Virus record (IMG/VR): IMGVR_UViG_3300035698_018106
Span: 38,717 to 102,716 of that record
Reading direction: 5' to 3' (one strand)
Source of the DNA: a virus
DNA: 64,000 nt
A model generated the notes under the pieces. The model had not been told where the DNA came from, searched no databases, and saw nothing but the letters and a program-made list of their open reading frames with translations. How positions within the stretch are numbered: the stretch's first letter is position 1; each line of letters starts with the position of its first letter. A program made the translations under genes and the position numbers. Below, piece after piece: positions 2,941 through 60,168 of the stretch.

Positions 2941-4017
2941 ATGATAAAAAATATACATACAGGAGAAGAATTTCCAGTAGAATGGACTTTAGATAAAACT
3001 GCAAATTTAAATCCAACCGATCTGACATACCATAATCTAATGGTAACTATATTAAAAGAAGGTTTATGGAAAGAAAATAGAACAGGTGTTAAAACACTTT
3101 CTATATTTGGCCCTCAAGTTAAATTTTCAAATGTAGGAGAAAGATTTCCATTACTTACAACTAAGAAAATATTTACTAAAGGGGTTATTGGGGAATTACT
3201 TTGGTTCTTAGAAGGATCTACTGATAAAAATAGATTAAGAGATCATTATGGTACTAAAATTTGGGAAGAATGGAATGGTCCAAATCCAAAATTTGATGGA
3301 GATATGGGACCTATTTATGGTAACCAATGGGTAAATTGGACGTATAATCATATTTATGATGAAGGAGAAGAAGTTGAATTGGAAGGTGAAGATGGTTTTA
3401 TTGTTTCAGAAAAGAGATCAATTAATCAATTACAAGGCATAATCGATACTCTTAAGACTAACCCAGATGATAGAAGAATGATTGTTTCCTGTTGGCATCC
3501 AGAGCAACTCAAAGATATGGCTTTACCTCCATGTCATTGGTCTTTCCAATTTTATACTAACGAATTATTAATAGATGAGAGATTTAGATTGTGGTTTGAT
3601 GAGAACAAACCTAATCGTGATGTTGTTGATTATTGGGATGGATTAAGTAAAGTAGAAAAACATATAATGTTAGATGAAGCAGGTATAAAGAAAAGAAGCC
3701 TAAGTCTTCTTTGGAATCAACGTAGTGTCGACACAGGTTTAGGACTACCTTTTAATATTACATCTTATGCTTTATTGTTAATGATGGTAGCTCAACAAAC
3801 CGATATGATAGCAGGTAATCTAATTGGTAATTTAGGAGACACTCATATATATGAGGATCATATGGATCAATTATGCAACCAGCTTACTAGAGAATCTACT
3901 ACTCTTCCCGTCATAAAAATCGATAAACAAAAAGATTTATGGAGCTATAAACCAGAACATTTCCATATAGAAAATTATAATCCACACCCTTCTATTAAAA
4001 TGAAAGTATCTGTTTAA
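2941..4017 (+). CDS. thyA: Thymidylate synthase (ThyA family) with a roughly 45-aa insertion
   Basis: Motifs RFPLLTTKK, GELLWFL, ALPPCH..FQFY, GLPFNITSYALL, HIYEDH and a C-terminal NYNPHP. Asn present in PFN(I)TSY, consistent with a dUMP substrate. Confidence 0.85.
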   Translation: MIKNIHTGEEFPVEWTLDKTANLNPTDLTYHNLMVTILKEGLWKENRTGVKTLSIFGPQVKFSNVGERFPLLTTKKIFTKGVIGELLWFLEGSTDKNRLRDHYGTKIWEEWNGPNPKFDGDMGPIYGNQWVNWTYNHIYDEGEEVELEGEDGFIVSEKRSINQLQGIIDTLKTNPDDRRMIVSCWHPEQLKDMALPPCHWSFQFYTNELLIDERFRLWFDENKPNRDVVDYWDGLSKVEKHIMLDEAGIKKRSLSLLWNQRSVDTGLGLPFNITSYALLLMMVAQQTDMIAGNLIGNLGDTHIYEDHMDQLCNQLTRESTTLPVIKIDKQKDLWSYKPEHFHIENYNPHPSIKMKVSV

Positions 4018-4061
4018 ATTAGTAAAAGTTAAAAGCACGTCCTAGAATATATAAAATAAAA

Positions 4062-4805
4062 ATGGATGTTATTTATTTAATAGAAGATGAAATTTCAGGA
4101 TTAAAATATTTGGGGTCTAAGAAAAATTGGCAAGGGGAAAATAGCTATTGGGGTTCGCCCTCTTGTAAAAACAAAAATAGAAAAAAATATAAATTACAAC
4201 AAGACTGGAAAAATCATTTTAAAGAGCATAAAGATAGCTTTAAATTTAATATATTAAAACATTTTGAAAAAATATCCATAAAAAAATTATTATTAGAAGA
4301 AAAAAAGCTACAACTAGAATATGATGTTTTAAATAGAAATGATTTCATCAATGCCGGATTAGCCGGAGGACATGGATTTATGGGAGAAGGTGAAGAAAAT
4401 CCGGTGTTTGGAAAAAAACATAGAAAAGATTCCATAAATAAAATGTCTATAAAGCAAAAAGAAAATGGTAAAAAATTATCTAAATTATATAAAGGGAAAA
4501 CATATGAAGAAAGATGGGGGGATGAAAAAGCTAAAATAGCAAGAAAAAAATTATCTGAGCATTCTAAAAACCGAACAGGAGATAAAAATTCTTTTTTTGG
4601 AAATAACCACAGTGAAAAAACTATACAACAAATAAAAAATAAGCAGAGGGGAAATAAACCTATTAATACTAAAAAGGTTTACATTGAAGGAAATATTTAT
4701 AACGGACTTAATGATGCATATATTGCAACTAATGTAAAGCCTACAACTATATGGTATAGGATTCATTCAAAAAATAAAAAATTCAAAGAATATAAATATA
4801 TTTGA
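4062..4805 (+). CDS. GIY-YIG homing endonuclease, I-TevI-like
   Basis: N-terminal VIYLIEDEISGLKYLGS (GIY...YIG). DWKNHFKEHKD resembles I-TevI RWKRHFKDLEKG. Two NUMOD3-like repeats (NPVFGKKHRKDSINKMS and NSFFGNNHSEKTIQQIKNK). C-terminal helix-turn-helix-like segment. Confidence 0.85.
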   Translation: MDVIYLIEDEISGLKYLGSKKNWQGENSYWGSPSCKNKNRKKYKLQQDWKNHFKEHKDSFKFNILKHFEKISIKKLLLEEKKLQLEYDVLNRNDFINAGLAGGHGFMGEGEENPVFGKKHRKDSINKMSIKQKENGKKLSKLYKGKTYEERWGDEKAKIARKKLSEHSKNRTGDKNSFFGNNHSEKTIQQIKNKQRGNKPINTKKVYIEGNIYNGLNDAYIATNVKPTTIWYRIHSKNKKFKEYKYI

Positions 4806-4809
4806 TATT

Positions 4810-5097
4810 TTTCTTGGCGGGCCATTCAATATAGCTTCTTATGCTTATTTGTTATTAATGATGGCTCAAGAAGTAGATATGATTCTCGGAGATTTGATTA
4901 TTTCTGCTGGAGATGTGCATATATATGAGAATCATTTAGAATATATTTATAAACAATTAGCTAGGGAATCTTCTTCTATAGAACCAACAGTTGTTTTAAA
5001 TAAAGATAAAGGTTTTTGGGATTTTACATCAGAAGATTTTGTAACAAATGGATATAATCCTCATCCAAATTGGAAAAATGTACCAATAGCTGTATAA
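4810..5097 (+). pseudogene. Duplicated 3' fragment of thyA (exon-2-like). It has no proper ATG; the track ORF starts at TTG 4849.
   Basis: Encodes FLGGPFNIASYAYLLLMMAQEV...GDVHIYENH...GYNPHPNWKNVPIAV, which aligns with the last ~95 aa of the upstream ThyA. Begins 5 bp after the endonuclease stop codon. Confidence 0.75.
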
Positions 5098-5111
5098 AAT
5101 AAACAATTTAA

Positions 5112-5297
5112 ATGTATAATATTGAATGGTTAAATACTTTTTTCATATATGGATCATATGTTATTGGATTAATAATAGTTGTATTAGTTTTCAAATTATC
5201 AATAAAATTAAATAAAGATATAAAAAAACTCGATAAATCATCTAAAGAAAATATGATTAAATATATGAGACAAACATCTAAATATAATAAAAAATGA
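5112..5297 (+). CDS. Small membrane protein
   Basis: 61 aa with one hydrophobic helix. Confidence 0.3.
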   Translation: MYNIEWLNTFFIYGSYVIGLIIVVLVFKLSIKLNKDIKKLDKSSKENMIKYMRQTSKYNKK

Positions 5298-6946: not shown

Positions 6947-7861
6947 TTAAAATCTATGTCTATTCATTTCTTCTCGAGATTTTCTATATTCTGCTTCTTC
7001 ATCATCTTCATCATTTTCATCCTCATCAGCAATATTATAATTTAAATATCCTGTACTTTCTAAGTCTTCAGCATAAGATGCTGGATTATCATCCCATATA
7101 GCAAATCTTCCTAGTTCATATCCATTAATTATAGTTTCTGGTTTTCCAGGTGACCCATCTTCTCTCCAAGATTGTTTAATTACAACTTTATTACCATTTT
7201 CTAGACTAATTACTATTTCTCTATACTCACTATTTAAATTTACATCAAATGAAATTAATTTACCACCTAACGCTTCTGCTACGATATTCCAATACTCATC
7301 TGTATCTATTGATTCATCATATATGTTACTATGATCATAAACTTCTTCATTTAATGATTCTTTTACTAATTTTGCTCTCATATTATTATTATTTAATTTT
7401 TCATCCATTTGTTGTTCTTGACTAAATAATTCCGGATCATCATAAGCAATTCCACCTTCATCATCAGGATCTTCATAATAATTTTCACCACTAAGTAATA
7501 TAGCTGTAGTTGGATCAATCCTTAATTCTTGTGACGTCTGATTGTCTAATATAATGTAATATGATATCTTATTATTTGTTTTTTCTATTCTAATTATCGG
7601 TCCTCTGTGTGATTCTGTTGACCTCTTGTTAAGTTCTTTCCCTTCAATAACATTTCCTGCATGGATTGTTTCTGCATTTTCTGCATTTGATGGTTTTGGT
7701 TGTAATTCTCTATTTAGTGGTTTAATCTCATAAGTATACATCATATTTGGACCGCCTGTATTATTAGCTCCTCCAAAACCTTTACTTCCTCTTGATTGAT
7801 AGATAGATTGTCCATATGAAAAACCTGCTCCACCCCACTCTTTTATTAATTTAGCTCTCAT
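6947..7861 (-). CDS. Acidic protein carrying the MRAKLxKE leader twice (N-terminus and internal Met161). Possible fusion of two units or an internal start.
   Basis: Begins MRAKLIKEW. An internal NNNNMRAKLVKESLNEEVYD segment. Acidic C-terminus. Confidence 0.5.
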   Translation of the reverse strand: MRAKLIKEWGGAGFSYGQSIYQSRGSKGFGGANNTGGPNMMYTYEIKPLNRELQPKPSNAENAETIHAGNVIEGKELNKRSTESHRGPIIRIEKTNNKISYYIILDNQTSQELRIDPTTAILLSGENYYEDPDDEGGIAYDDPELFSQEQQMDEKLNNNNMRAKLVKESLNEEVYDHSNIYDESIDTDEYWNIVAEALGGKLISFDVNLNSEYREIVISLENGNKVVIKQSWREDGSPGKPETIINGYELGRFAIWDDNPASYAEDLESTGYLNYNIADEDENDEDDEEAEYRKSREEMNRHRF

Positions 7862-7862
7862 T

Positions 7863-9527
7863 TTATTCGTCGTAATTTAAACACATATATTCTACTTGTA
7901 CAGGAAATGTTTGAGGATTAAAGATATAAAAACCTCCAATAAGATTTTTTGTATAATAATCAGGATGATCAGATGCAGTAAATCTAGATGAAAATGGTCC
8001 TACTTTAAACCACATATTATGTGTATTAATATAATCTAAGTATTCTGAAGCGCTCATTGTTTTTTCATCTCCACAGCCATTTCTTCCTACATCAACTATT
8101 TTCATAAATCTTTCATAATATAATGAAGAATCTAATGTATATGAAAGTGATGCATCCATTGTACCATTTATATATATAGTGGTACAATTTTCAAGAGAAG
8201 TTTTATCATCTAAATCTGTATTATAAAGAGTACAATTAATTATAGATGAATCATATATTTCAGAAGTATAAATACTTGCATCTGAAATAGTTGTATTATT
8301 TAATGATGTATCATGTATTACTCCGCCTTCAATATAAATTCTTTCACATGAAACATCATTAGTCCATAATCCCGGAATTACTTCAAAAGCATTAACCCAT
8401 GAATTTTCTAAACTAGAATCTATCACAATAGAATCTTTATTAATATGACTACTTATAACAGAAACATTTTGTATTGATGAATCTTCAAATAAACTTTTAT
8501 TTGTATAAGACGTTCCTATTCCAGATTCATATATTGAACAATTAATAATTGAAGCATCATACATATATGAACCATATAATGAACAATCTACAATATTAAT
8601 GCCTATGGATGGTTCAGATATTATATCTACATTATAAAAAGCAGCATCGCTTGGATCTATTGCAATATCATCTACAATAACAGGATATACAATAGAAGGA
8701 TCAAATGAAATAGATTTATATTCGCTAACATCATCAATAAAATTATCAACTTGTATTGATTCATAAACTTCAAAAGGACTATCTACATGATTCATATAAA
8801 GCCATGACGAATATTTACATGTGTCGCGTGGATATAATGTTTTTAACATATATCCTAACATAGCTCCATTTGGGTATTTAGATGCCGGTAACATACCATC
8901 AACATTTTCTGTTAATGGATATATTTGTTGGATATTTACACCATCTATTATAATAGAAGGAAATGGTGAATTTATATCCATAGATGCATCAATTATTCTA
9001 AGTGACACATTTGATATATCATAGTCATAACCAACATTATTTGCTTTGAATGTAAATGAACTTGGATCATATGTAGCTGATATATCTAATGTTGTATTAG
9101 ATAGAACAATATTTAATGCATCATCAATATCGATATTTGCATCATTACTTGAACTAGCATCAATATTAATATCGAAATTCTTAAAATTATAATAATAATT
9201 AGCTGAAAGATCAATCATCATAAAAAACTCTTGTTTATCATATCCAAAATTAGGAATATCAAAAAGTTGAGTTCTATAAAGTAGTCCTCTAGATATTCCA
9301 GGAACATATGTTACTTCTCCACTTTGTAAAGTTTTTTTCTCTCCTGTCCAACTAGTAACAGGAATTGATATATCCGAAAGATCCATAAATTGTACTATAT
9401 CGCTCCCGACTACTACACCTGCTCCATCATCAATAAATTTAAATTCTGCATCATCTCCTGCGTTTGCACATGGTGCTAATCCAGGATTGACATAATCGTT
9501 AGAAGGATTATTAAATACATCTGACAT
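7863..9527 (-). CDS. Tail fibre or tailspike-like protein with parallel beta-helix repeats
   Basis: 554 aa. N/S/D/I-rich repeats (DSSI, DASI, NCS/T IY), typical of beta-helix fibres. Confidence 0.5.
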   Translation of the reverse strand: MSDVFNNPSNDYVNPGLAPCANAGDDAEFKFIDDGAGVVVGSDIVQFMDLSDISIPVTSWTGEKKTLQSGEVTYVPGISRGLLYRTQLFDIPNFGYDKQEFFMMIDLSANYYYNFKNFDINIDASSSNDANIDIDDALNIVLSNTTLDISATYDPSSFTFKANNVGYDYDISNVSLRIIDASMDINSPFPSIIIDGVNIQQIYPLTENVDGMLPASKYPNGAMLGYMLKTLYPRDTCKYSSWLYMNHVDSPFEVYESIQVDNFIDDVSEYKSISFDPSIVYPVIVDDIAIDPSDAAFYNVDIISEPSIGINIVDCSLYGSYMYDASIINCSIYESGIGTSYTNKSLFEDSSIQNVSVISSHINKDSIVIDSSLENSWVNAFEVIPGLWTNDVSCERIYIEGGVIHDTSLNNTTISDASIYTSEIYDSSIINCTLYNTDLDDKTSLENCTTIYINGTMDASLSYTLDSSLYYERFMKIVDVGRNGCGDEKTMSASEYLDYINTHNMWFKVGPFSSRFTASDHPDYYTKNLIGGFYIFNPQTFPVQVEYMCLNYDE

Positions 9528-9585
9528 ATATAAGACAATTATTTTATTTATTTATTCACTTGAAAAGATAATATAATGCTTTAAA

Positions 9586-9613
9586 CTAAAAAAGAGGCAC
9601 TTGCCTCTTTTTA
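9586..9613. terminator. Rho-independent terminator
   Basis: AAAAAAGAGGCACTTGCCTCTTTTT hairpin with A and T runs. Confidence 0.65.
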
Positions 9614-9928
9614 TATTTCATCAAAATTTCTATGTTCACCTTTATTAATAGGAATACCTAAATTATATCTATTTCCCAACCTAGATGGTTGATTATTTTT
9701 CTTTTTTAATCTTTCTATAGCTTTTACATCTACTACTTCCACTCCATCTTTAACCATACTATTATATTGGTCTTCTTTAGGTGCTGGGTGAATATCTACT
9801 ATAGTATCTTCCTTTAAGATAGATGGATCAATATTATCTACCTCTTTTACTTTTGGATCATTCTTGAGCCTCTGAAGCATTTCTGTACCCTTTGAAACTT
9901 TATTAATTTCATCTAAGTTTTTTATCAC
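9611..9928 (-). CDS. Hypothetical protein
   Basis: 105 aa ORF. Confidence 0.4.
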   Translation of the reverse strand: MIKNLDEINKVSKGTEMLQRLKNDPKVKEVDNIDPSILKEDTIVDIHPAPKEDQYNSMVKDGVEVVDVKAIERLKKKNNQPSRLGNRYNLGIPINKGEHRNFDEI

Positions 9929-14454: not shown

Positions 14455-15081
14455 TTATGATTCATTCTCTGTATAAGCTAACACTAAATCTGGATAATCC
14501 TTCTTTATGTTAATGGCAATATCTCTTTTAGCTTTTCTTAAGCGAGTTTTAACTGTTGCTGTTTTCATTCCTAAGTCATCAGCAATAGTTTGTAATTGTT
14601 TTTTGTTAACCATTCGTTCAATCATTACTGATTTATATGGTTCTTTTAAATTATTGATAGCTATTACTGACGCATCATATAATTCTTGGATAAGATCTTC
14701 ACCAGTTGGACCTATTACTTCTGTTTCAAATTCATATAATGGTGAATTTTTCTGGAGAGTTTTTGAATGGTTTTGAGATAATCTATCATGAGAAACAGAT
14801 TTATTCATCGCATGAATTTGTCCTAGAGCTTCGTTTTTTGCAATTGCATAAACCCATGTAGAAAAATTATATTTAGAATTATATTGTTCGATTTTTTCCC
14901 AAACTGAAATAAAAGTTTGAGATATTACTTCATTAATTATATCAATATCTTGAATATATTTATATGCAAATGTTAATAAACCAGGTTTCATCCTATCAAT
15001 TAATTCAGTAAATGAATGATTGTCTTTTCTTTCTATAAAATTTAATGCTATACTTTGTATTGATTGATTTCTTTTTTTCAT
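14455..15081 (-). CDS. RNA polymerase sigma factor, sigma-70 family (ECF-like)
   Basis: Region-2-like FSTWVYAIAKNEAL. Region 4.2 helix-turn-helix QLQTIADDLGMKTATVKTRLRKAKRDI. Confidence 0.7.
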   Translation of the reverse strand: MKKRNQSIQSIALNFIERKDNHSFTELIDRMKPGLLTFAYKYIQDIDIINEVISQTFISVWEKIEQYNSKYNFSTWVYAIAKNEALGQIHAMNKSVSHDRLSQNHSKTLQKNSPLYEFETEVIGPTGEDLIQELYDASVIAINNLKEPYKSVMIERMVNKKQLQTIADDLGMKTATVKTRLRKAKRDIAINIKKDYPDLVLAYTENES

Positions 15082-17524: not shown

Positions 17525-17719
17525 AATATGATTTTATTTTATATATTTAAAAAATTGGCTCACACTAAGGCAGTGAGCCATTCTCCAGGAAATATTAACC
17601 TCTTAGGCTGCCATTTCCATTTCACTTAATTTGCCATTTAAAGCAGTTTTACAAAGTTAATCACTAATATATTCAATATCCGGTCAATACCAGGTCAGGC
17701 CCATATGTTGAAAAAATAA

Positions 17720-17760
17720 TGGTGGACCTGGGCGGAGTCGAACCGCCGTGTCGCATACTT
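17720..17760 (-). other. Truncated tRNA 3' end (T-arm, 3' acceptor strand, discriminator and CCA) with no matching 5' half
   Basis: The minus strand reads GGCGGTTCGACTCCGCCCAGGTCCACCA. No GGACCTG 5' acceptor strand within 100 nt. Lies in a GC-richer island. Confidence 0.55.
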
Positions 17761-17923
17761 ATTCTACAGCTATCTTGTCAACTTGTTAACAAGAATACTT
17801 TGTATTTTTATCTAATTATATATTCAATTATGTTTTTTATGTTTATGTATATAATATAATACATAATTGAAATTTGGTTATTAATAATGTGTTAAAATTA
17901 TATAACATGTTTGTTAAGAATGT

Positions 17924-19723
17924 TTAAAGGTCTACAGATGTATCTTCATCTCCTAATCCTAAATCTTCTCCACCATCATCTCCAAAGTCTCCACCACCAA
18001 CATCTCCAAAGTCTCCACCACCTCCTCCAAAATCTCCACCAGCTCCGCCGGCTCCATCACCAGCTGGGGCAGCACCACCTTTGGCTGCATTTAATCTGGC
18101 ATAAGCAGCCATTAATTTCTGTATTTCTATTTGTCGTGACTTGCGATATTTTTCATTAATTTTAATATCAATATCAGACATTTGCATATATTTCTCAACT
18201 AGAAATTTTGGATCAAAATAAGGTACATCTACTGGAGTTCCATCAGGACCTACACTAGGATGAGTAATGCCAGATAAGGTAGATACAAGTGCTGCCCCAG
18301 CAGAAGCAACTTCTCTTTCTTTTGCAACAGTAAATAAATTTTCTTCATTAAATAATAGTCCTATAGATCCTTTTAATTTTTTATCATTTTGAAATTCTGG
18401 ATGTTTAAGAACAAACTGATACCATAGAGGTTTTAAAAGTATATCTTTGTATATACTTCTAACTCTGTTAATAAAGTATGAGAATCTCATTTCTTCTCTA
18501 GCTATACCATCCCCACCGGAAGACCAATTCCCACCTTCGGCACCTCCACCACCTGAACCACCTGATTCAGCAAAAGAACTAAATCTACTTTCTGGGACTT
18601 TAGATTCAATTATAAATCGTAACCAAAAATATTTAAGAGATTCAGTATCTGACATATCATATCCTTCTGGTTTAAATGAATCAATCACTGTTTCCATTCC
18701 ATCTTTAGAAGGAATTATATAAGTTTTTCCAAAAGAAAAATTAGGTTGCCCATTAACAGTAACTTCTCCAGAATCATCAGTGATATTAATATCTTCTTTA
18801 TACATACCTCTTAATTCAGCAAGTCTAGTACGAGCCTTTGCTTCAGATTGAGATCCAATTGGAACTACAATTTTCATTCTATATTGAGCATTAATAACAT
18901 TCCATATAACTCTAGAATTTTCTAATGTTCTAAGCATATTAAATGATCTAACTAGTCTTTCTACATATGATAATCTGGATATAAAATTAGTTCTTGCCCA
19001 TGACATATAAATTAAATTAGCATCTAATAATTCTCTTTCTCTTTCAGAATCTCCTCTATATTGTACCCACACTTTATATTCATTACCTGCATCGTCTTTT
19101 TTAAGTTCAGGTTCTAATGAAATTGGATCTAATTCTTTAAAACCGATTACATTTTCTGCATCTCCTTTATCATTCTGATCATATATAATTTCAAATGATA
19201 AAAAACCATCAATTAATAATTTTTTAATATAATGCCATGCATCATGACTTCCATTAAATCCAAAAGCATAATAAATCTTTTTAAATGCTGAGTTTAGATC
19301 ATCAATTACTTCTTTTGCTTTATCTTCTTTTAAAACAGATTTAAGAATTCTAGTATTAGGATATGCAAAATATCCATTATCATCATTAATAATAGTTTCA
19401 TCAGCAATTACTTCTAAAACATGTTCAATTTCACCATTCATTGCAAATCGTCTAAGGAAATCTCTTCTTGTTGGATATTCTTTATCATAAAACGCGATAA
19501 ATTCCTTTTGACCTATATCTGATCCAGAGAAAATATGTGATTGACCATAAAGGTTATACATATTATCCTCAGTTGCTTCAGTAATACCAACAGCTCTAGA
19601 TTGTTTGATGAGTTTATCATCCCATTTCATTCCAATTGCTGATAAATATCTTATATTTTTTTGTATTTTAGAGATTATACCAGATGGTCTACCATCCATA
19701 GTTCTCAAAGTAAATCCTGCCAT
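17924..19723 (-). CDS. Portal protein, T4 gp20-like
   Basis: Stretches resembling gp20 (DFLRRFAMNGEIEHVLEVIADETIINDDNG, GSHDAWHYIKKLLIDGF, FKELDPISLEP). Gly/Asp-rich acidic C-terminal tail. Confidence 0.55.
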   Translation of the reverse strand: MAGFTLRTMDGRPSGIISKIQKNIRYLSAIGMKWDDKLIKQSRAVGITEATEDNMYNLYGQSHIFSGSDIGQKEFIAFYDKEYPTRRDFLRRFAMNGEIEHVLEVIADETIINDDNGYFAYPNTRILKSVLKEDKAKEVIDDLNSAFKKIYYAFGFNGSHDAWHYIKKLLIDGFLSFEIIYDQNDKGDAENVIGFKELDPISLEPELKKDDAGNEYKVWVQYRGDSERERELLDANLIYMSWARTNFISRLSYVERLVRSFNMLRTLENSRVIWNVINAQYRMKIVVPIGSQSEAKARTRLAELRGMYKEDINITDDSGEVTVNGQPNFSFGKTYIIPSKDGMETVIDSFKPEGYDMSDTESLKYFWLRFIIESKVPESRFSSFAESGGSGGGGAEGGNWSSGGDGIAREEMRFSYFINRVRSIYKDILLKPLWYQFVLKHPEFQNDKKLKGSIGLLFNEENLFTVAKEREVASAGAALVSTLSGITHPSVGPDGTPVDVPYFDPKFLVEKYMQMSDIDIKINEKYRKSRQIEIQKLMAAYARLNAAKGGAAPAGDGAGGAGGDFGGGGGDFGDVGGGDFGDDGGEDLGLGDEDTSVDL

Positions 19724-19760: not shown

Positions 19761-20432
19761 TTATCTAGATTTCCAATATGATTTGTAAATATCATTAAAG
19801 TTAATACCTTTTATAGCATTCTTTGGACTATAAAAAGGAATATAATCCCATTCACAATATTCAATCATACGAATATTAGCTATATTTCTTAAATTATATT
19901 TTCGGAATGCATAATTAAAGTTAGATCCAGATTTTTGGATAAATGCTTTTAATAACATTTGACCTAAAACAGAACTAGCTATTGTAATAAATTTTTTGTT
20001 TAATACTAATTCATCATTTTGAGTCTTTTTTTCTAAATCTCCAAAAAATGATTTATATGAGTTATAATATGTACTCAAAAAAGATAAACGTTCTATATCA
20101 GGTAATAAATTAAAATTTACTCCTGATAACATCCCATCTCTAATACCAGTGCAAAAAACCATTGGAACTACATCAATATATGATTTATTTTTAGGAAGTT
20201 CATTAATGCCTAATTGTGGCGGGTAAATAAAAGTATATACTGATCCAGGGAGCGGATATCCTCCATTTTTTGATAATATTAAACTCTCTTGATCTGTAGA
20301 TTCCCATTCCCATAATTTATCATCCCCTTTTTTATTTTCTAAAATATACTTAACGAATAATGTATCATAAGATAATTTTAATATCCCATTAATATCTCGT
20401 AATTCTTTAAACCTACTTATTGGATCTTTCAT
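19761..20432 (-). CDS. Hypothetical protein
   Basis: 223 aa ORF. Confidence 0.4.
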   Translation of the reverse strand: MKDPISRFKELRDINGILKLSYDTLFVKYILENKKGDDKLWEWESTDQESLILSKNGGYPLPGSVYTFIYPPQLGINELPKNKSYIDVVPMVFCTGIRDGMLSGVNFNLLPDIERLSFLSTYYNSYKSFFGDLEKKTQNDELVLNKKFITIASSVLGQMLLKAFIQKSGSNFNYAFRKYNLRNIANIRMIEYCEWDYIPFYSPKNAIKGINFNDIYKSYWKSR

Positions 20433-20692: not shown

Positions 20693-21319
20693 TTACATGT
20701 GTCTAGGTGGTTTTTCGTGCCAAAATCGGCCTGTTATTTTTTCTAATATATGTTCAGTAAACACAAAGAATTTAACTCCATTTTTTTCTGCCCAACCTTT
20801 AAGAGCAGCAAATTTTGCTTCATTAATAAGATATTCTTTTGCTGCATTATTGAAAGACCTTTGAATTTTTAAAGGTGCATCTCTATCAGGTGGTATAGGT
20901 TTAATTAATTTTTTAGCAGGTTTAATTTCAACAAACATTTTTTCAAATTCTCCTTCACCTCTATCTAATTCAAACCAAAAATCTGTGTTATAGTTTTTAA
21001 CTTCCCAATTGGCTGGATCATTTGGATTTAATCCAAGTTTTGAACATTCTTCTAATCTAGAAACTCTATCATAATAAGGGACTGTAACAGGTTCGGATGA
21101 CCATTTAGTTACAGATTTTGACATATCACAATATCTACAAAAGGAATATTCCCAAGCACTTCTGAATATAACTAATTCAGGATCGCCAATATATTTAGCT
21201 TTATTTTCTACTCTATAATAGCCTTGATGAGTAGTACCTTTTTTTAAACTTCCATTAGCATTATATTTATTTGCAGATGGTTTGTGCCAGTTTTTATAGC
21301 TAGAATTGTGATCAGACAT
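20693..21319 (-). CDS. Hypothetical protein
   Basis: 208 aa ORF. Confidence 0.4.
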   Translation of the reverse strand: MSDHNSSYKNWHKPSANKYNANGSLKKGTTHQGYYRVENKAKYIGDPELVIFRSAWEYSFCRYCDMSKSVTKWSSEPVTVPYYDRVSRLEECSKLGLNPNDPANWEVKNYNTDFWFELDRGEGEFEKMFVEIKPAKKLIKPIPPDRDAPLKIQRSFNNAAKEYLINEAKFAALKGWAEKNGVKFFVFTEHILEKITGRFWHEKPPRHM

Positions 21320-21352: not shown

Positions 21353-21700
21353 TTATAAGTTATAGATAGCATGGTGACTAATAGATATCTTAGATGACTT
21401 TGGCATATGTCCATATAATTTTCTCCAACCTTTAGCAAAGCCATTTTTTATAACCTGTGTATAATAAGCGAATGCATTTTGTGATTTCGCTGGATCATAT
21501 CCTCTCCAATATTGAAAACAATCCATGATAGCTACTGAAATACAATCTTCTTTATCTTCAGAATATACATAAGTTAATTTATTAGCGAATTTTCTAGACA
21601 TTAATATTAACATATCTAGTGCTACCGGTGTCAATTCATCTAATTCTTTAGATTTAAGTATCTCTTCTCTTAAATCGCGATTTTTTACATGGTGTGCCAT
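21353..21700 (-). CDS. Late-transcription sigma factor, T4 gp55-like
   Basis: LDMLILMSRKFANKLTYVYS and QNAFAYYTQVIKNGFAKGWRK parallel gp55 [20 protein letters not shown] and [23 protein letters not shown]. Confidence 0.5.
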   Translation of the reverse strand: MAHHVKNRDLREEILKSKELDELTPVALDMLILMSRKFANKLTYVYSEDKEDCISVAIMDCFQYWRGYDPAKSQNAFAYYTQVIKNGFAKGWRKLYGHMPKSSKISISHHAIYNL

Positions 21701-22710: not shown

Positions 22711-25551
22711 TTAAACACTTAATGTTTTAACTAAAGCTATAGGTGCAGCAGAGAATTCTTGTTCCTGTCCAGAACCTTTTATGATTCTAACTTCTGCCGA
22801 ATCTCCAATACCTGCTGTATAATCAATAATATTAACTAAAATATTTTCTATTGCTTCACCTGATTCTTCATCTATTAATACGCCTTCTGTATAATTGTCC
22901 GGATTTGCAAAATCATTAACATCTTCAAATATTCTAATACGTTCTTTAGGTAATATCGACGATCTTCCTTCTATTATAACTCTTATTGGACTATCATTTT
23001 TAGCTTCTTCCCATTCATTAAACATAACGAAACAATCATTAGTTTTAACAGGTGTCGAACCCATATATATTCCACATTTAACGTATTGTTCAAATAATGT
23101 CTTTGTAGTTAAATTTTGCAATGTTTTTTTATCAAATTCAAAAGGTGGTTTTACTAAAGGCTCTGGCTTTTCATGAGCACCTTTTATTTTTGAAGGATTT
23201 GCTTTTATAGTAGATCCTTGTACTTGAACAATAAAATCACCATCACTGGTTTGACTTATTATAGATCCTTTATTTTTATCTATAATTACATCATCTCCTA
23301 GTTGAAGATCTTCTTTTAATTGTTTAGTGTTTTTTTTTCCATTGACAGATTCTACAACTTTCTTTTTAAGGAATATTCTTGGAGCATTTGGAGCTTTTTC
23401 TTTGGCTTCAACATCTTCAACTTCAGCATCTCCACCATCAGATTTTTCTAAATCAGATTTTTCTAATTCTTCAGGTGCTATTGAATTTGGCTCGGCTTCT
23501 AATTCTTCACCTTCAACTTCTAAAGCTTCATCATCATTATCTCCTTCTTCAGATATATCTTTATTAGGATCATAACTTTCTCCTTCAGCTTCATCAGTGG
23601 CTTCTTCATCTTCATCTTCATCTTTTAAACCTAACTCATCATCTTCGGCTCCATCTTCGGCAGCTACATCTAGATTTTCTTCATCTGTATCTTCACTACC
23701 TTCGGTGCCTAAATCAGTTTCTTCGGAATCATCCCCTTCAGTTCCTTCAGTTCCTTCATCTTCAGTTCCTTCATCTTCCTCGGCATCTGAAGCAGCTTCG
23801 GCAGCATCAGCGGTTGCTTCAACATTATCAACTCCTAAATCTACTTCATCAGCTTGCATAGATGGAGAATCACCTAATAATTCAGATTGATCATCGTCAA
23901 ATGTAATTTGACTTGCTGGTTCTGTTTCCATATTCTCAGCACCTATAACAGTACCTGCTGTTTGATCGGTTGTTTCTCCTTTGGCAGTAGAACTTGGTTC
24001 TGGGATTGGAACAGTATATTTTTGCCCATCAACATCAATAGTTACAGTTGTACCTTCTGATACTTCAGTATATTTCTCAATATGATTAACATAATCTTTA
24101 TATTCAGTTTTAACATCAGCTAATTCTTCTTTTAATATAGAAATTACGTCAGTAGATGCAGAATTATCAATATTATTAAATTGATCAATCTTTTCATTTA
24201 ATGATCTTATGTAATCTAAATATCCTTTTTTAGTTTCATCAATTTGAGCTAATATTTTAGTTTTATTTGGTAAAATATCTGCAAATGTTTTTGAAACATC
24301 AAAATGCATATGTTCATTCATTATCTTTTCAGCCTGTATAGGATTGATATTTCTAAAGAATGTTGCTTTGTTATTATTTGGATCAAATGTTGAAATGAAT
24401 ATATTGTTGCGCAATTTAATAATATCTGCAGCATGAGATTCATCTAGTTTCATATAAACTCTTTTAGCAAAATCTATTTCAACTATTTCATCAAAATTAG
24501 TTTTTAATCTTTCGGCTAACATAAAGAAATTAGTATTTCCTGTCCATTGTGAAAGTTCAGTTGCATCCTTTAATTCGGTCTCATTCATTACATGTGTATT
24601 GATTTCAACAGAATTTTCATTAATAACTGCCTTATCATTCCCAATATATAATGTTATGTCATTTTTAGAAATTTCAACGTTTGGTAAGTTAACAGCTTCA
24701 CATAATGATTTAAAATTTTCATCTAATCCAGCAGCTTGATTTTTTTTGAGTTTATTAACATTATTACCTTTTTTAACATAAAAAGTACCTTTAACATTAA
24801 ATACTACTTCATTTTCTCCTAAATACATAAGTGGGGAAAATACTTTTTCAATAGCAACTTCAGTATTTGCATATTCTAATTGCAAATCCTTAGCATCTGT
24901 CATCACAATATTAATAATATCGTGAATAAAAGGATCATAACTAAATTTAACTAAAGTTTCTTTTAAAATACTTTTAGTTTGTTCAGATTTTTCGGCTAAA
25001 TATTTATTAACAACATCTTCAATAAGAGGTAAAAGATAACTACTCTTAGTTGATTTCATGGTTTCGATTATCTTAGTGATATCGATATCATTTTTATATT
25101 TTGTTGCTTTTTCTGAAAGAGTTTGTATTTGTTTTGAAACATCAGGCATCCAAGTATATTCAGATGATAACACATTAATAAATTCTTCATATATTAAAAC
25201 TTCTGGATACTGATTAACTTTTTCTTCAAAATGTTCTAATATACCTGAAAGAGTTTCATCATTCTTTGCATCACTTTCTTTAAGACTATTAATAGCCTTT
25301 CTTACACCTATGTTCTTAATTGAAAAAAGACGTTTTTCGTTATCTAACCACTCTGATATTAAATCATCAGTTGGATGTTTTTCTAATCCTTCAAAAAGAT
25401 TTTCTAAAGCTACTCTCTCTATTTCAAATCTTGCTTCTGGGGTTACGCTATTATAAATTGCAGAACTCATAGCTGCTATAGTAGTTTCACAAAGTGATTT
25501 TACTTGCCCTATAGTAGTTGTTCTTTTAAGTTTATTAATTTTTGCTATCAT
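22711..25551 (-). CDS. Large virion-associated protein with a ~170-aa poly-acidic low-complexity region
   Basis: 946 aa. The central D/E/G/T-rich tract (DEGTEDEGTEGTEGDDSEE...) is encoded by repetitive gaa/gat DNA. CATAAATATATAAT sits upstream. Confidence 0.45.
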   Translation of the reverse strand: MIAKINKLKRTTTIGQVKSLCETTIAAMSSAIYNSVTPEARFEIERVALENLFEGLEKHPTDDLISEWLDNEKRLFSIKNIGVRKAINSLKESDAKNDETLSGILEHFEEKVNQYPEVLIYEEFINVLSSEYTWMPDVSKQIQTLSEKATKYKNDIDITKIIETMKSTKSSYLLPLIEDVVNKYLAEKSEQTKSILKETLVKFSYDPFIHDIINIVMTDAKDLQLEYANTEVAIEKVFSPLMYLGENEVVFNVKGTFYVKKGNNVNKLKKNQAAGLDENFKSLCEAVNLPNVEISKNDITLYIGNDKAVINENSVEINTHVMNETELKDATELSQWTGNTNFFMLAERLKTNFDEIVEIDFAKRVYMKLDESHAADIIKLRNNIFISTFDPNNNKATFFRNINPIQAEKIMNEHMHFDVSKTFADILPNKTKILAQIDETKKGYLDYIRSLNEKIDQFNNIDNSASTDVISILKEELADVKTEYKDYVNHIEKYTEVSEGTTVTIDVDGQKYTVPIPEPSSTAKGETTDQTAGTVIGAENMETEPASQITFDDDQSELLGDSPSMQADEVDLGVDNVEATADAAEAASDAEEDEGTEDEGTEGTEGDDSEETDLGTEGSEDTDEENLDVAAEDGAEDDELGLKDEDEDEEATDEAEGESYDPNKDISEEGDNDDEALEVEGEELEAEPNSIAPEELEKSDLEKSDGGDAEVEDVEAKEKAPNAPRIFLKKKVVESVNGKKNTKQLKEDLQLGDDVIIDKNKGSIISQTSDGDFIVQVQGSTIKANPSKIKGAHEKPEPLVKPPFEFDKKTLQNLTTKTLFEQYVKCGIYMGSTPVKTNDCFVMFNEWEEAKNDSPIRVIIEGRSSILPKERIRIFEDVNDFANPDNYTEGVLIDEESGEAIENILVNIIDYTAGIGDSAEVRIIKGSGQEQEFSAAPIALVKTLSV

Positions 25552-29870: not shown

Positions 29871-30395
29871 TTACTGTAGTATTCCATTAACATAGCTAGC
29901 AACTGTTTGATTAGAATCAAACCAATCTTCTACCCTATAACTATCACTTCCAATCTTATTAACATGTTGAATAATTCCTGGATCTTCTTTTGTTATAATT
30001 ATAGCTTCTTCTTTTGCTGCTTTTAATTCTTCAGATTCACCTTCAAATTCATTATATTCATTAAGAACATCACTAACTATTTTTGCTTCCATTACCATAT
30101 CTTTTTTTTCAATTGTATCATTAACATTATCCATTCCAACTTTATTCCAATAATTGGGATCATCTAATTCATCTCTTCTAATATTATAGAAAAAAGTTAA
30201 AGCTAATCTTGCTTTATTATCAGGAAGTTTTTTTATAACTAAATTATAAATTTCTTCTAACTCTCTTTCATCTGAAACATCTTCAAAATATTCATCGTAA
30301 TAATATGCATATAGTGCCCAAAATTCTGTATAATCTGGTACATTAGTAGGATCTATTCCATAATATTCAAATAATCTTTTTAAATTTCTTTTCAT
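29871..30395 (-). CDS. Hypothetical protein
   Basis: 174 aa ORF. Confidence 0.4.
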   Translation of the reverse strand: MKRNLKRLFEYYGIDPTNVPDYTEFWALYAYYYDEYFEDVSDERELEEIYNLVIKKLPDNKARLALTFFYNIRRDELDDPNYWNKVGMDNVNDTIEKKDMVMEAKIVSDVLNEYNEFEGESEELKAAKEEAIIITKEDPGIIQHVNKIGSDSYRVEDWFDSNQTVASYVNGILQ

Positions 30396-30748
30396 TATTT
30401 AGATGATTCTATTAGAATATTTTTAGTTAAAACTTTTTTAACTCCAGTTTGTGTTTTAAAAAGATAATAAGACCCTTCACCCATTTTAGCGATTGGTTTC
30501 CCTTCTACGGTTTCCCCTGATTCTTTATTCTTAAATATTAAAATATCTCTATTAAATTCAGGAGAAAGTAATTCATTATCAATTATAGTCGAAACTCTTT
30601 TTGACATTCCTAGATTTATTGCATTTGTTGGATCAACATCTTCTACATCATTAGAATCCGGATTATAATCATCTGGCATATCTCCAGCCATATAGTCTCT
30701 TTCATTAGATTCTTTTAGACTTTCTGCAACAAATTTTATTTTTTTCAT
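30395..30748 (-). CDS. Hypothetical protein
   Basis: 117 aa ORF. Confidence 0.4.
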   Translation of the reverse strand: MKKIKFVAESLKESNERDYMAGDMPDDYNPDSNDVEDVDPTNAINLGMSKRVSTIIDNELLSPEFNRDILIFKNKESGETVEGKPIAKMGEGSYYLFKTQTGVKKVLTKNILIESSK

Positions 30749-35927: not shown

Positions 35928-36317
35928 TTAATCTCCTTTATAAATAGAAGCTTTATCTTGATAAAATTTAGTAATTCCTTCTCCTGTTTCTTTTTCTTGT
36001 TTAGAATCAAATCTTATTTTTGGGGAGTTCAGTGAATCACCTTCATCCACAAACCAGGTAATATTATCCATTTGATCATTTACAACTTCTAATGCATTTA
36101 ATAATTTATCTAATTCACCTGACATATAATAGGCATATATTCCACCTGTTTTAATAACATATTCATCTGTACTTCCGGATTTTAGTGTAACAGAAGGTCC
36201 TAATATTTTTTTATAAGTCTTTCCTTCTATTTTTTGCATAAGTATGGTTGCAAATTCAACTGCTTCATCATATGAAACAGATTCTTCAACAGATTCATTA
36301 ACAAATTTAGCTCTCAT
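35928..36317 (-). CDS. Hypothetical protein with MRAKFVNES leader
   Basis: The N-terminus shares ATGAGAGCTAAATT with the 7861 start. Confidence 0.45.
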   Translation of the reverse strand: MRAKFVNESVEESVSYDEAVEFATILMQKIEGKTYKKILGPSVTLKSGSTDEYVIKTGGIYAYYMSGELDKLLNALEVVNDQMDNITWFVDEGDSLNSPKIRFDSKQEKETGEGITKFYQDKASIYKGD

Positions 36318-41815: not shown

Positions 41816-42991
41816 TTAAAATAATGAACGCGCATATATTAAATTTCCAGGAACTTTATTAAATCCAGCAGATGTCATAAATCTATTAAAAGGTTCAATT
41901 ATAATTTTTTCAAATTGTAAATCATAATCTACATCAGGGGCAATTTCAAATGGATAATTTCCAGGTAAGAAACCAAATGTCCCTTGATCATTTTTAGCAT
42001 AAAAATACTTTAATTTATCACCTGTTCTAATTAAATTATATTTAGTTTTCCATTTAGTATTTAATAACGAATTGTTATAAATAGCTGCAGATCTAACATT
42101 TATAGGACATTTTGGAGCTAATCTAATTTCTTTTCTATCTTCTAAAACATATTTTTCATAATCTCCTATTGATACAGTTTTTGCTATATCATTAGGATCT
42201 TGTAATAAAAATTGTTTTTTATATTCTTTGAGTTTTTTTACTATTTCTGAATATTCTAATTTATCATTTTTTTCAAAAATCTCATTAAGCATTGCTTTTA
42301 ATACCTTTCTAGAAAATGCCGGAGTAGATCCTTGTACAACTTCAACACCAACTGGAGTTATTTTTTGTTGTGGTTTAAAAGAAATTCCAGGATCTTTCCA
42401 TGCTAAATCTAAGATATATTTTTTCTTAGCAACCATAAGAGCAGAATATGAAATTTTCTCTAATTCTAAATCTTGTAAGTTTTTAGTATTAAATTGTGCC
42501 GCATATTCATCAAATTTTACTTTAATATATCCTTCTAATCTTAATTCTTTAATTTTTAATATAAGATCTTTTGGATCTCCTTTCCAGTCACAAGATTTCA
42601 CAATTGGATCTAATGTAACATATGTTGAATCTGTATCATTATAAATTACTATAGTTGATGCTTGTACTTTATTAGCATATGTTAAACCAAGTTTTTCATG
42701 TAATGATTTATCTAAATGCCATTTGTTTAAAAAATAATCATCTAGAAAATCATTAGCATATTTAATCATATTTTGACCTTGAAGCGTAACAGCTTCAGCT
42801 AATGCAACATTATAACATTCAAACCAAGGAGATCCAACACCACCATAAATTGAATTAATAAAGATTTTAATAGATTGCTCTAGATTAAAATATTCTTCTT
42901 TCAAAGATTTAAGTCTATTTATTTCTAGATCTAATTCTTCAATAGAACAATTATATGGATCTATTTTTACTAATTCAAATTCAAAACTCAT
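41816..42991 (-). CDS. Family B DNA polymerase C-terminal fragment (palm motifs B and C plus thumb)
   Basis: KIFINSIYG (motif B, Kx3NSxYG), YNDTDS (motif C, YGDTDS) and KKKY (KKRY). No motif A and no exonuclease domain. Confidence 0.75.
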   Translation of the reverse strand: MSFEFELVKIDPYNCSIEELDLEINRLKSLKEEYFNLEQSIKIFINSIYGGVGSPWFECYNVALAEAVTLQGQNMIKYANDFLDDYFLNKWHLDKSLHEKLGLTYANKVQASTIVIYNDTDSTYVTLDPIVKSCDWKGDPKDLILKIKELRLEGYIKVKFDEYAAQFNTKNLQDLELEKISYSALMVAKKKYILDLAWKDPGISFKPQQKITPVGVEVVQGSTPAFSRKVLKAMLNEIFEKNDKLEYSEIVKKLKEYKKQFLLQDPNDIAKTVSIGDYEKYVLEDRKEIRLAPKCPINVRSAAIYNNSLLNTKWKTKYNLIRTGDKLKYFYAKNDQGTFGFLPGNYPFEIAPDVDYDLQFEKIIIEPFNRFMTSAGFNKVPGNLIYARSLF

Positions 42992-43040
42992 AATCTATTT
43001 TTAATTTATTATTGAAAAATAGACTATAAGTTTCAAAAGA

Positions 43041-43220
43041 TTAATTAAGACTTATGTTAATTTTTGAACCATTACCTGGATTCCATACGATAAAAAGTCT
43101 ATGGCCACACCTTTTACTCTCAAATGCAGCAATAGCAGCCAACCTCATGTATTCATATGGGGTAATATGTCCATTTTTAAGATAGAGCTTAATATCACCA
43201 CTTAAATTATTTTTTTCCAT
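43041..43220 (-). CDS. Possible small ORF (59 aa), absent from the ORF track
   Basis: MEKNNLSGDIKLYLKNGHITPYEYMRLAAIAAFESKRCGHRLF... Confidence 0.2.
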   Translation of the reverse strand: MEKNNLSGDIKLYLKNGHITPYEYMRLAAIAAFESKRCGHRLFIVWNPGNGSKINISLN

Positions 43221-43286
43221 AATTGGTTTATTTATAATGGCAATATAACCAATTAATGTTAATTAAAAAATGTTAATTACAAATAT

Positions 43287-44066
43287 TTACTCTAATGTAT
43301 TTAATACTTCTAACACTTTTGGTATGATTTTATTTCTAACACATTCTTCGTTTACAAATTCAACTGTGCCAACAAAATCGTGTGGTTCAAATCCAGAGTG
43401 CACTTTCTGTAAACATGATGTATTCTTAGCTTTTCTATCGATTTGCTCAGTGTCACCAATAAATATCATTTTACTATTTCTACCTATGCGGGTAATTATA
43501 GTTTTAAATGTATGCATATCTATATTCTGAGTTTCATCAATTATAATAATTGAATTATCTAGAGTATTACCTCTAATAAAAGCAATAGGTTCAACACCAA
43601 TGGTTCCATCTGCTATAAGTGCCTTAGTAACACCTCTATCACCAAATATTTTATTTAAATTACCAGTATACGATGTCATATATGGTTCCATTTTTTCTTG
43701 TAAAGTTCCAGGAAGAAACCCTGTTTCTTCTCCTTGAATGGTTTGTAATGATTTAATTAGAATTATTCTTCTATATTGTGGACTTGTTTTTAAAATATGT
43801 AAAGCAGTTATTAAACTTAAATATGTCTTACCCGTTCCGGCAGGGCCTACACAAATTGTGATTTCATTATTCTCAATTGATTTTTTTAACTTCTTTTGTT
43901 TTTCATTTTCACATTTAATTTTTATGGGTATGTCGTTAATCTGAATTTTATTAGTACCTGTAGTTTTCTGTTTGCGATCAAGCCATTGGTTAACATCCTC
44001 GACGTCATCCTTGGATAAATTTTTCTTTTTTGCCATACAATACTTATTTTTAATTTTAGTTATCAC
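43287..44066 (-). CDS. phoH: PhoH-like ATPase
   Basis: VGPAGTGKTYL Walker A and DETQN Walker B. Classic PhoH layout. Confidence 0.85.
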   Translation of the reverse strand: MITKIKNKYCMAKKKNLSKDDVEDVNQWLDRKQKTTGTNKIQINDIPIKIKCENEKQKKLKKSIENNEITICVGPAGTGKTYLSLITALHILKTSPQYRRIILIKSLQTIQGEETGFLPGTLQEKMEPYMTSYTGNLNKIFGDRGVTKALIADGTIGVEPIAFIRGNTLDNSIIIIDETQNIDMHTFKTIITRIGRNSKMIFIGDTEQIDRKAKNTSCLQKVHSGFEPHDFVGTVEFVNEECVRNKIIPKVLEVLNTLE

Positions 44067-44130
44067 ATATGTGATATCCCATTTTAATATCTATTCAGGC
44101 TTAATAAACTTTAATATGAATGCAATGCGC

Positions 44131-46978: not shown

Positions 46979-47272
46979 TTATATTCTGTTTGTATCTGAT
47001 AATGCATCAGCATCAGGATATTTTGCAAGAATTTCATAGCCGGTTTCTGCAGCATCTTTAAGATCTGATATAGGAATTCTTTTATCATACCATTCCTCTT
47101 CACCATCTTCCATTAAATAATCTTGTTCAACTTGATACCATTCTTCTTCAGCTTCTTCATCTCCACTAGATCCTATCTGATATGATATTGATTCTATCGA
47201 GGAAATATATTCAAATCTTTTTTGTGGTATAACATTTTCTATTAATGATTCTTTTACTAATTTTGCTTTCAT
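46979..47272 (-). CDS. Acidic protein with MKAKLVKESL leader
   Basis: The first 31 nt match 7351..7381 at 30 of 31 positions. Confidence 0.5.
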   Translation of the reverse strand: MKAKLVKESLIENVIPQKRFEYISSIESISYQIGSSGDEEAEEEWYQVEQDYLMEDGEEEWYDKRIPISDLKDAAETGYEILAKYPDADALSDTNRI

Positions 47273-55295: not shown

Positions 55296-55637
55296 TTATT
55301 TTTTGATTATTTCAACAGCAACTGATTTCCAATAATTTATACCATTTTTTTCTTTATCAAATCTACCATCCAATTCTCTGACAATATACAAATCCTCATT
55401 CAAAGTTTTTGCAATATTTTCAAGTGTCTTTCTAGATATAGTTATATCAATATCGCCATACCATATTTTACCTGATTTTTTTGTGGCTATATTTGCATTA
55501 AATAATACAACATTACCTCTGTGTTCTGATAAATAACCTATTTTAGAACCAGATATCATTCTACCTAAAGAAAATTTATTATCTCGAAACACCTGATTAT
55601 AATCAGGTGTTTCGATAGTTTTTGATCTTAATTTCAT
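55296..55637 (-). CDS. Hypothetical protein. Start taken at the internal Met to avoid overlap; the track ORF extends to 55763.
   Basis: ORF. Confidence 0.3.
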   Translation of the reverse strand: MKLRSKTIETPDYNQVFRDNKFSLGRMISGSKIGYLSEHRGNVVLFNANIATKKSGKIWYGDIDITISRKTLENIAKTLNEDLYIVRELDGRFDKEKNGINYWKSVAVEIIKK

Positions 55638-55638
55638 A

Positions 55639-56022: not shown

Positions 56023-56024
56023 TC

Positions 56025-56552: not shown

Positions 56553-56586
56553 GATTTTATTTTTATTAAGTTTAAAATTTATTTAA

Positions 56587-59231: not shown

Positions 59232-59430
59232 TTGTATTTTTATTAAATTTTAGTTGTTTCAAATCCAACAACATTATATTTGCTAATTTTCTTCGACATC
59301 AACCCTTCCAAATTTTCTAAATTTAGGTGGTCTGGTGTCGAATTTACTCTTCTTATTTCGTTATCCGGAATCCTATCCAAACTTTGATTATTATCTCTAC
59401 TATCCGCACTAAAAAATTTAATAGCTCCCT

Positions 59431-60158: not shown

Positions 60159-60168
60159 GTTTTATTTT

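Follow-up and report, generated by a model that had tools for sequence, protein, structure and literature searches.

A peptide of 8–12 amino acids (aa), with the consensus M-[KR]-A-K-[LF]-[VI]-[NK]-E-[SA]-[LI]-x-[ED], heads a set of otherwise unrelated acidic proteins in a stretch of viral DNA of 64,000 nucleotides (nt) (IMG/VR record IMGVR_UViG_3300035698_018106, positions 38,717–102,716). We call this whole stretch the window and give its positions in its own coordinates. The leader is a real, strongly non-random and clade-specific feature, and selection acts on it as a peptide. With a rough probability of 0.45, we read it as a signal resembling the capsid-targeting sequence (CTS) of phage T4, which would also serve as a prohead-protease site and as a separator between protein modules. 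The gene content of the window assigns it to an uncultivated huge phage that is distantly related to the Lak megaphages. The leader motif is new relative to the literature searched: full-text searches with its motif strings found no paper.

Unrelated acidic proteins have a leader peptide in common

Four strong copies of the leader, all on the minus strand and conforming to M-[RK]-A-K-[LF]-[VI]-[NK]-E, stand where an initial reading of the window, the original prediction, had placed them (7861, 7381, 47272 and 36317). A fifth, degenerate copy heads a further open reading frame (ORF).

7838..7861, minus strand: leader copy 1, the short form MRAKLIKE, directly before GGAGFS; the start of its ORF (6947–7861) reads MRAKLIKEWGGAGFS
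7346..7381, minus strand: leader copy 2, at the in-frame Met161 (position 7381); reads MRAKLVKESLNEE; copy sequence MRAKLVKESLNE
47237–47272, minus strand: leader copy 3, MKAKLVKESLIE, heading a 97-aa acidic ORF (46979..47272) that starts MKAKLVKESLIEN
36282–36317, minus strand: leader copy 4, MRAKFVNESVEE, heading a 129-aa acidic ORF (35928..36317) that starts MRAKFVNESVEES
30710–30748, minus strand: fifth, degenerate leader, MKKIKFVAESLKE, heading a 117-aa acidic ORF (30395..30748) that starts MKKIKFVAESLKES

Shuffled sequences rule out chance as the source of these copies. The 31-mers at 7351–7381 and 47242–47272 are identical at 30 of 31 nt, as originally claimed, and none of 100 dinucleotide-preserving shuffles gave such a match. 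The nucleotide stretch said to be common to the ORF starts at 7861 and 36317 is likewise there (ATGAGAGCTAAATT). A position matrix built from the leaders of other contigs scores at least 12 bits at the four strong window sites only, against a mean of 0.13 such sites in 200 shuffles.

Behind the leader, the proteins have nothing detectable in common. Pairwise similarity among the five cargo parts is undetectable (E > 3), and all are acidic, with isoelectric points of 4.1–4.9, in agreement with the description of the downstream proteins as unrelated and mostly acidic. Searches of PHROGs and Pfam with the five leader proteins gave no matches. A homolog search with the 129-aa ORF returned the query alone, as did one of those with the 117-aa ORF; homologs of the latter begin MKKMFVDESLNEF or MKKIMVEESLYEF. 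One detail of the original prediction has to be corrected: the leader does not end in L-x-x-E but in the three residues [I/V/L]-x-E (IKE, VKE, VNE), to which the long form adds S-L-x-E.

Selection acts on the leader peptide

Codon usage and RNA folding both place the conservation at the level of the peptide. Alanine codons in the leaders (GCA 19, GCT 18, GCC 4) follow background usage, and synonymous sites across leaders vary like background. Folding of the leader regions as RNA gave z-scores of 0.07–1.38, that is, no structure, and Rfam has no family match at the leaders. Because synonymous codons follow background and neither structure nor an RNA family is found, selection acts on the peptide, and a structured RNA or translational operator is ruled out on the same grounds. 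Substitutions within the motif are conservative in amino acids (L/F, V/I, N/K).

The complete genome of Lak-A1 (541,643 bp, 25.9% GC) served as a comparison of equal base composition. It has no leader among 958 raw ORFs, no homolog of the GYG family described below and no over-represented N-terminus. This absence argues against general start-codon optimisation and rules out codon bias alone as the source of the leader.

The pair of nearly identical 31-mers goes somewhat beyond what peptide conservation predicts. Given identical peptides, the probability that all eight shared codons coincide under codon bias alone is about 0.003. The pair reflects mostly peptide conservation together with extreme codon bias, to which recent copying or recombination at the leader probably adds. 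Recombination, one of the explanations first proposed, may account for this one pair but not for the motif in general. The T4 genes ipII and ipIII behave in the same way: their first 32 nt are identical and diverge abruptly thereafter, and in the window pair, too, nucleotide identity is confined to the leader.

Leader genes carry diverse cargo in syntenic slots

The leader recurs on many related contigs with ever different cargo. A search of IMG/VR with a degenerate 24-nt pattern found 73 stretches, all on contigs of 24–36% GC, and nearly all matches are genuine ORF starts. The 88 unique leader ORFs at these loci (numbered L001 and so on) form 63 clusters that are unrelated to one another. Pfam domains are rare: just about 10 of 89 leader proteins have one, among them six with ankyrin repeats and one with an SLT lytic transglycosylase domain. 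Many of the loci are syntenic with the window, and leader genes often stand in tandem arrays, with five in a row in L047 and four in L011.

In 97 N-termini of the M[RK]A[KR] type, position 5 is Leu in 41 and Phe in 41, position 6 is Val or Ile in 96, position 7 is mostly Asn (48) or Lys (32), and position 8 is Glu in 89 and Asp in one.

Syntenic slots hold different genes behind the leader. In the slot bounded by the topoisomerase II medium-subunit gene and a conserved 260-aa gene, the window carries the 97-aa leader gene and L011 four different leader genes in tandem. A second slot, flanked by an SbcD-like gene and a conserved 157-aa gene, is occupied in the window by the 129-aa leader gene (35928–36317); L066 has a different 108-aa gene there, with an identical MRAKFVNE start and beside a GIY-YIG endonuclease gene, and L023 has no leader gene in this slot.

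Subsets of the cargo (in L006, L009, L018, L019, L021, L045, L072, L088 and others) have further conserved motifs after the leader, namely (I/L)(L/F)KPKS..(D/E)(I/L), DPIKDMGIG and SGLS.IGIGK. From their sequences, these motifs suggest cargo sub-classes with a longer common N-terminal module of about 25 aa.

The leader motif at module boundaries of the GYG family

The first two leader copies belong to one protein, whose layout recurs in a small family.

6947..7861, minus strand: 304-aa ORF, comprising leader, Gly-rich disordered stretch, MYTYEIKPLN segment, small Tudor/SH3-like beta-barrel, boundary motif and 130-aa acidic module

The N-terminal 160 aa define the family, here called GYG, which combines Gly-rich disorder (also described as Gly/Arg-rich), the conserved MYTYEIKPLN segment and the Tudor/SH3-like barrel, with the leader motif at both ends. 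The family is small: one search gave 111 matches, and it accounts for 168 clusters among 1.84 billion representatives. The 130-aa acidic C-terminal module has no homologs. Searches of cultured phages by tblastn with the 304-aa ORF, and with a peptide joining the leader to DPIKDMGIG, found nothing useful.

GYG members preserve the end of the leader closely. In 103 of 109, a Glu stands three residues ahead of GAGFS, and in 103 of 109 a Leu, Ile or Val stands two residues before that Glu. The pattern holds both where the domain is N-terminal and where it follows another module, and divergent members keep it with variable spacing. About 62 of 103 homologs have a second leader-like motif 30–45 aa past the barrel. 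This C-terminal motif lies at most 12 residues from the stop codon in 29 regular-expression matches (for example KKVVRESI-stop); otherwise another module comes next. Junctions in multi-module homologs retain the motif even where it has no Met, as in VRARFINES, LRARLVNES and HRAKLVDKTLNE. A second conserved family, that of the 117-aa ORF, also has leader-like motifs at both ends in its homologs.

Because homologs carry the motif at the same position, the internal copy at Met161 is the C-terminal boundary motif of GYG, continued in the window by an extra acidic module. On a syntenic 405-kb contig (L001 + L093), the GYG gene stops after its motif, and the leader gene behind it is a separate one. 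The original prediction had offered a fusion of two genes or an internal translation start. Fusion is borne out, although it is an incomplete description of a site that is the family's conserved boundary. An internal start at Met161 is plausible from its upstream context: the preceding sequence is A/T-rich, and its start-context score, which falls at the 35th percentile of real starts, is among the highest 1.9% when 324 internal ATGs are compared. Both motif copies of the 304-aa protein fall in flanks that AlphaFold2 predicts to be disordered, so the motif regions would be accessible.

Head protease, capsid protein and predicted processing sites

The window encodes several T4-like head and late genes.

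17924..19723, minus strand: T4 gp20-type portal gene (PHROG 213, E 7.6e-46; phmmer against T4 gp20, E 5e-13; 42% identical to the Lak-A1 portal)
19761–20432, minus strand: gp2-like DNA end protector
20693–21319, minus strand: gp4-like head completion protein
21353–21700, minus strand: gp55-like late sigma factor

The gp20-type portal gene shows, as judged from gene content, that this phage uses T4-type head assembly. Searches by phmmer with T4 head proteins found homologs of gp21 and gp23 adjoining leader genes in L072 and L041. About 30 related contigs have both a protease and a capsid gene. One of them is the 405-kb contig, which carries, besides a GYG gene and a leader gene, a protease-scaffold fusion of gp21 type and a capsid protein of gp23 type. 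The protease of this clade is of gp21 type, with some 600 aa of scaffold-like sequence fused to it; in L093 the protein is encoded at 7573–9915, and its protease domain covers about residues 1–170. A similarly fused 'prohead core scaffolding and protease' gene is known from freshwater huge phages of Bacteroidetes (PMC9723584).

Conserved candidate processing sites in these proteins resemble the end of the leader. Three sites never vary among 22 protease-scaffold proteins. One, LILE-RSS, is N-terminal; another, AQLxx(V/I)NE-(S/G), comes directly past the protease domain and is followed about 18 aa later by a second such site, (L/M/I/F)NE-S. The capsid protein, compared in 27 sequences, has an invariant HAL(N/T/Y)E-(A/S) near residue 43. 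The Lak-A1 equivalents at these places are RINE-S, YLNE-S and KLNE-D, and in Lak-A1 the motif [LIVMF]NE[SAG] is 15 times denser in the protease-scaffold protein than genome-wide. Leaders most often end in F/L-V/I-N-E-S/A, which is the motif of these predicted processing sites.

A further protease homolog was seen in L067, a contig syntenic with the window. It is a 169-aa gp21-like protein without scaffold (8655–9161, minus strand), 1.5 kb from the GYG gene. Its phmmer match is weak (E 0.009), and its ELEHP and ASRA motifs align with gp21-family proteases.

A putative capsid-targeting and trimming signal

The T4 CTS offers a model for how such a leader might work. In T4, the CTS is a 10-aa N-terminal propeptide, the protease gp21 cuts after L/I-x-E, and an Asp at the residue before the cut (P1) blocks processing (PMC9026906). 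The CTS is the sole conserved part of the otherwise diverse internal proteins of T-even phages (PMC3012670). By analogy, the basic and hydrophobic first half of the leader would dock the cargo on the prohead scaffold core, the gp21-type protease would cut after the Glu of [LIV]-x-E, and the mature protein would be freed inside the capsid and possibly ejected into the host. Where the motif lies between modules, multi-module ORFs would behave as small polyproteins. Where it closes the C-terminal end of the two conserved families, it would be comparable to the processing of T4 Alt at both ends (PMC9026906).

Docking, cleavage and packaging of the leader proteins are inferred from several lines of circumstantial evidence, which make the capsid-targeting or propeptide idea, already part of the original prediction, the best supported of the readings. 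These lines are the T4-type head genes, the gp21-type protease of the clade, the [LIV]-N/x-E-S/A ending common to leaders and candidate processing sites, and the ipII/ipIII-like pattern of nucleotide identity.

A number of observations weigh against it. Lak-A1 has the protease and its conserved sites, yet no leader, so the leader is not an obligatory partner of this protease type. The window itself has no protease gene; the protease is known from the syntenic 405-kb contig and the roughly 30 related contigs. We dropped a by-eye match of the capsid HALNE site to the T4 gp23 cut site, because MAFFT places the conserved Glu opposite T4 E49 and not opposite E65, where gp23 is cut, which leaves this site a candidate only. 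Leader genes lie among replication genes, and a leader is found on just 3 of 624 ORFs near head genes. A motif like the T4-like late promoter TATAAATA is equally frequent upstream of leader genes and other genes, at about 15% each. Some members have no Glu (for example MRAKFIRGQDPKD), and C-terminal copies 1–3 residues from the stop codon would make little sense as cleavage sites and fit binding better. The cargo is also acidic, and the T4 internal proteins known to contact DNA use lysines. Another motif, ATAAATAAAA, of a type found upstream of capsid genes, is three-fold enriched at leader genes (p = 8e-4) and is of low complexity.

Two promoter-like motifs occur in the window and its relatives. 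The first, ATATATAAA(A)TAAA, resembles the T4 late promoter and lies about 8–15 nt before the start codon, often after a terminator-like hairpin. It is found upstream of 36317, 17524, 11708, 40179 and 41654, and also upstream of protease genes in L084, L089 and L090. The second, AATAAATAAAATAAA, precedes capsid genes.

Alternative explanations

The peptide could be read by something other than the capsid machinery. Improbable, but the most serious contender, is an uncleaved docking motif that binds a common non-capsid partner, such as the GYG Tudor/SH3-like barrel, a replication or transcription hub or a condensate, and that functions equally at an N-terminus, a C-terminus or in a linker. The spread of copies over N-termini, junctions and near-terminal positions fits binding better than cutting. 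Leader and GYG co-occur in this clade and are both missing from Lak-A1, GYG joins Gly/Arg-rich disorder and a Tudor-like barrel with a motif at each end, and leader genes lie among replication genes. However, AlphaFold2 docked neither copy on the barrel in cis (pLDDT, its per-residue confidence score, is 50–60 there). A simple helix would also leave unexplained both the near-invariant Glu with Leu, Ile or Val two residues before it and the match to the protease and capsid sites. We think it quite unlikely that the motif is instead a degradation or activation tag, through which a host protease or another phage protease would limit the lifetime of accessory proteins or free polyprotein modules in the cytoplasm, independently of the capsid. 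The terminal, linker and disordered settings of the motif, the beads-on-a-string layout of the ORFs and the interspersion of leader genes with early-type replication genes would suit such a tag, but no second protease candidate was seen, the motif ending matches the head protease's own conserved sites, and Lak-A1, whose host is probably of the same phylum, has no leader.

Explanations at the nucleotide level fare worse. The leader would be a DNA-level recombination handle if its 24–36 nt were kept mainly for swapping cassettes by homologous recombination and the peptide had little function. The codon coincidence in the 30/31-nt pair, the syntenic slots in which different cargo follows an identical leader, often beside homing endonuclease genes, and the tandem arrays all speak for this. 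It is nonetheless very unlikely: synonymous positions are background-like, amino-acid substitutions are conservative, and the motif persists on contigs of 24–36% GC and at C-termini. The shared leader more probably gives rise to recombination than owes its existence to it. The original prediction had also considered a translation-initiation element, for which we find no support. Met-less copies inside and at the ends of proteins, together with the missing leader in Lak-A1, rule out a translation enhancer, and the synonymous sites point the same way. The related idea of an A-rich, unstructured coding start that boosts initiation in hosts not using Shine-Dalgarno sequences agrees with the A/T-rich regions upstream of window starts, which have no Shine-Dalgarno sequence, and with the unstructured leader RNA. 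We disfavour it as highly improbable, since Lak-A1, of equal composition and probably with a host of the same phylum, has neither this nor any other over-represented N-terminus, and since what is conserved at positions 5, 6, 8 and 10 is the class of residue rather than the nucleotides.

Beyond the capsid-targeting reading itself lies a bolder proposal, which we consider doubtful: leader and GYG would together form an undescribed plug-and-play cargo system of Lak-related phages. An adaptor or scaffold would read the 8–12-aa tag at either end of a module, the head protease would cut the strung polyproteins, and in this way dozens of fast-evolving effectors would enter the capsid, or some other compartment made by the phage, and reach the host.

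Genome context and relationship to Lak megaphages

The distant relationship to Lak is seen in homologs and in capsid similarity. Lak-A1 has homologs for 26 of 87 window ORFs, at 25–45% identity, and the capsid protein of the syntenic 405-kb contig is 48% identical to that of Lak. The window has 26–31% GC and no tRNA genes, and past about 7 kb nearly all genes lie on one strand. Its replication and nucleotide genes include T4-like topoisomerase II subunits, a DnaB-like helicase, UvsX, SbcCD, a UvsW-like helicase and thymidylate synthase. Gene starts have no Shine-Dalgarno sequence and are A/T-rich upstream, and several ORFs are lipoprotein-like; the host is probably a member of the Bacteroidota.

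Several further features of the window and its relatives deserve mention. Two window genes are sigma-factor-like, one of the sigma-70 region 2/4 type (14455–15081, minus strand) and the gp55-like gene listed above (21353–21700, minus strand). A permuted tmRNA lies at 17603–17783 (minus strand), between the portal gene and a downstream 159-aa ORF; it matches Rfam RF04321 at 67 bits against a gathering score of 47 (E 1e-10), and ARAGORN reported none. The 946-aa ORF at 22711–25551 (minus strand), which has a hyperacidic low-complexity tract of about 200 aa, is conserved across many related contigs and, at 33% identity, in Lak-A1. Small ORFs with lipoprotein-like signal peptides cluster at 55296–57117 and 58134–61389 (both minus strand), with RNA ligase and tRNA nucleotidyltransferase genes nearby.

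Some genes appear interrupted. The thymidylate synthase ORF (2941–4017, plus strand) is followed by a homing-endonuclease-like ORF (4062–4805) and a 79-aa ORF (4858–5094), whose Lak-A1 match is the ORF that ThyA matches too; the region 2941–5294 may represent a gene into which a mobile element has inserted, or what is left of a fused thymidylate synthase–dihydrofolate reductase (TS-DHFR). In L011 (3910–6055, plus strand), the topoisomerase II medium-subunit gene is in two ORFs of 181 and 435 aa, both matching window ORF 47300–48730, which suggests an intervening element. The window DNA polymerase gene (41816–45945) may likewise be split: ORF 41816–42991 (minus strand) matches only the C-terminal half of DNA polymerase profiles, and upstream of it, with a 259-aa ORF between, lies a 604-aa ORF (44131–45945, minus strand) without a PHROG match.

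Comparison with known systems

The closest functional parallel is the T4 CTS, found on IPI, IPII, IPIII and Alt and removed by gp21. Both are short N-terminal leaders (8–12 aa here, 10 aa in T4) that form the sole shared part of unrelated small proteins, both end in hydrophobic-x-Glu, and both occur with a gp21-family protease and a T4-type head. The cargo genes lie in hypervariable loci, as do those for T-even internal proteins, and signals at both protein ends have a counterpart in T4 Alt. The likeness is one of functional analogy and not demonstrable homology: placed by eye beside the T4 sequence MKTYQEFIAE, the leader has only the M-K start and the E end in common. The residue two before the Glu (P3) is mostly Val or Ile in the leader, with Val commoner than in T4, and the next (P2) is often Asn. 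Unlike T4, with its handful of internal proteins, this clade has at least 63 cargo clusters; its leader motif also joins modules and ends proteins a few residues before the stop codon, its cargo is acidic, its protease is fused to a scaffold, and its leader system is known from sequence alone.

Huge phages of another lineage, Chimalliviridae and relatives, also load many different proteins into the head, among them phiKZ, 201phi2-1 and SPN3US (PMC9026906, PMC10052503). Their gp21-related protease (gp175/gp245) cuts after Glu at a three-residue motif, S/A/G-x-E, with several sites per protein and redundancy (PMC9026906, PMC10052503). In contrast to the leader described here, their inner-body and ejection propeptides are long and have no short leader in common, and their P3 is a small residue, not Leu, Ile or Val. 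The closest described genomes are those of the Lak megaphages of Prevotella and of the freshwater huge phages of PMC9723584. Lak resembles the clade in its low GC and in a protease-scaffold fusion with conserved (I/L)NE-S sites, and Lak-A1 differs from it in having neither the leader nor the GYG family.

Implications

If the leader is a true capsid-loading and trimming signal, it would allow packaged and ejected proteins to be listed from sequence across a clade of uncultivated huge phages. Those proteins, mostly without homologs, would be candidates for roles in host takeover or anti-defence. Being very short, the leader could also be useful as a tag with which foreign proteins are brought into large capsids. 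The polyprotein-like layout of leader ORFs has no T4 counterpart, and the T4 capsid-targeting principle would extend to Lak-related megaphages with a far larger cargo repertoire.

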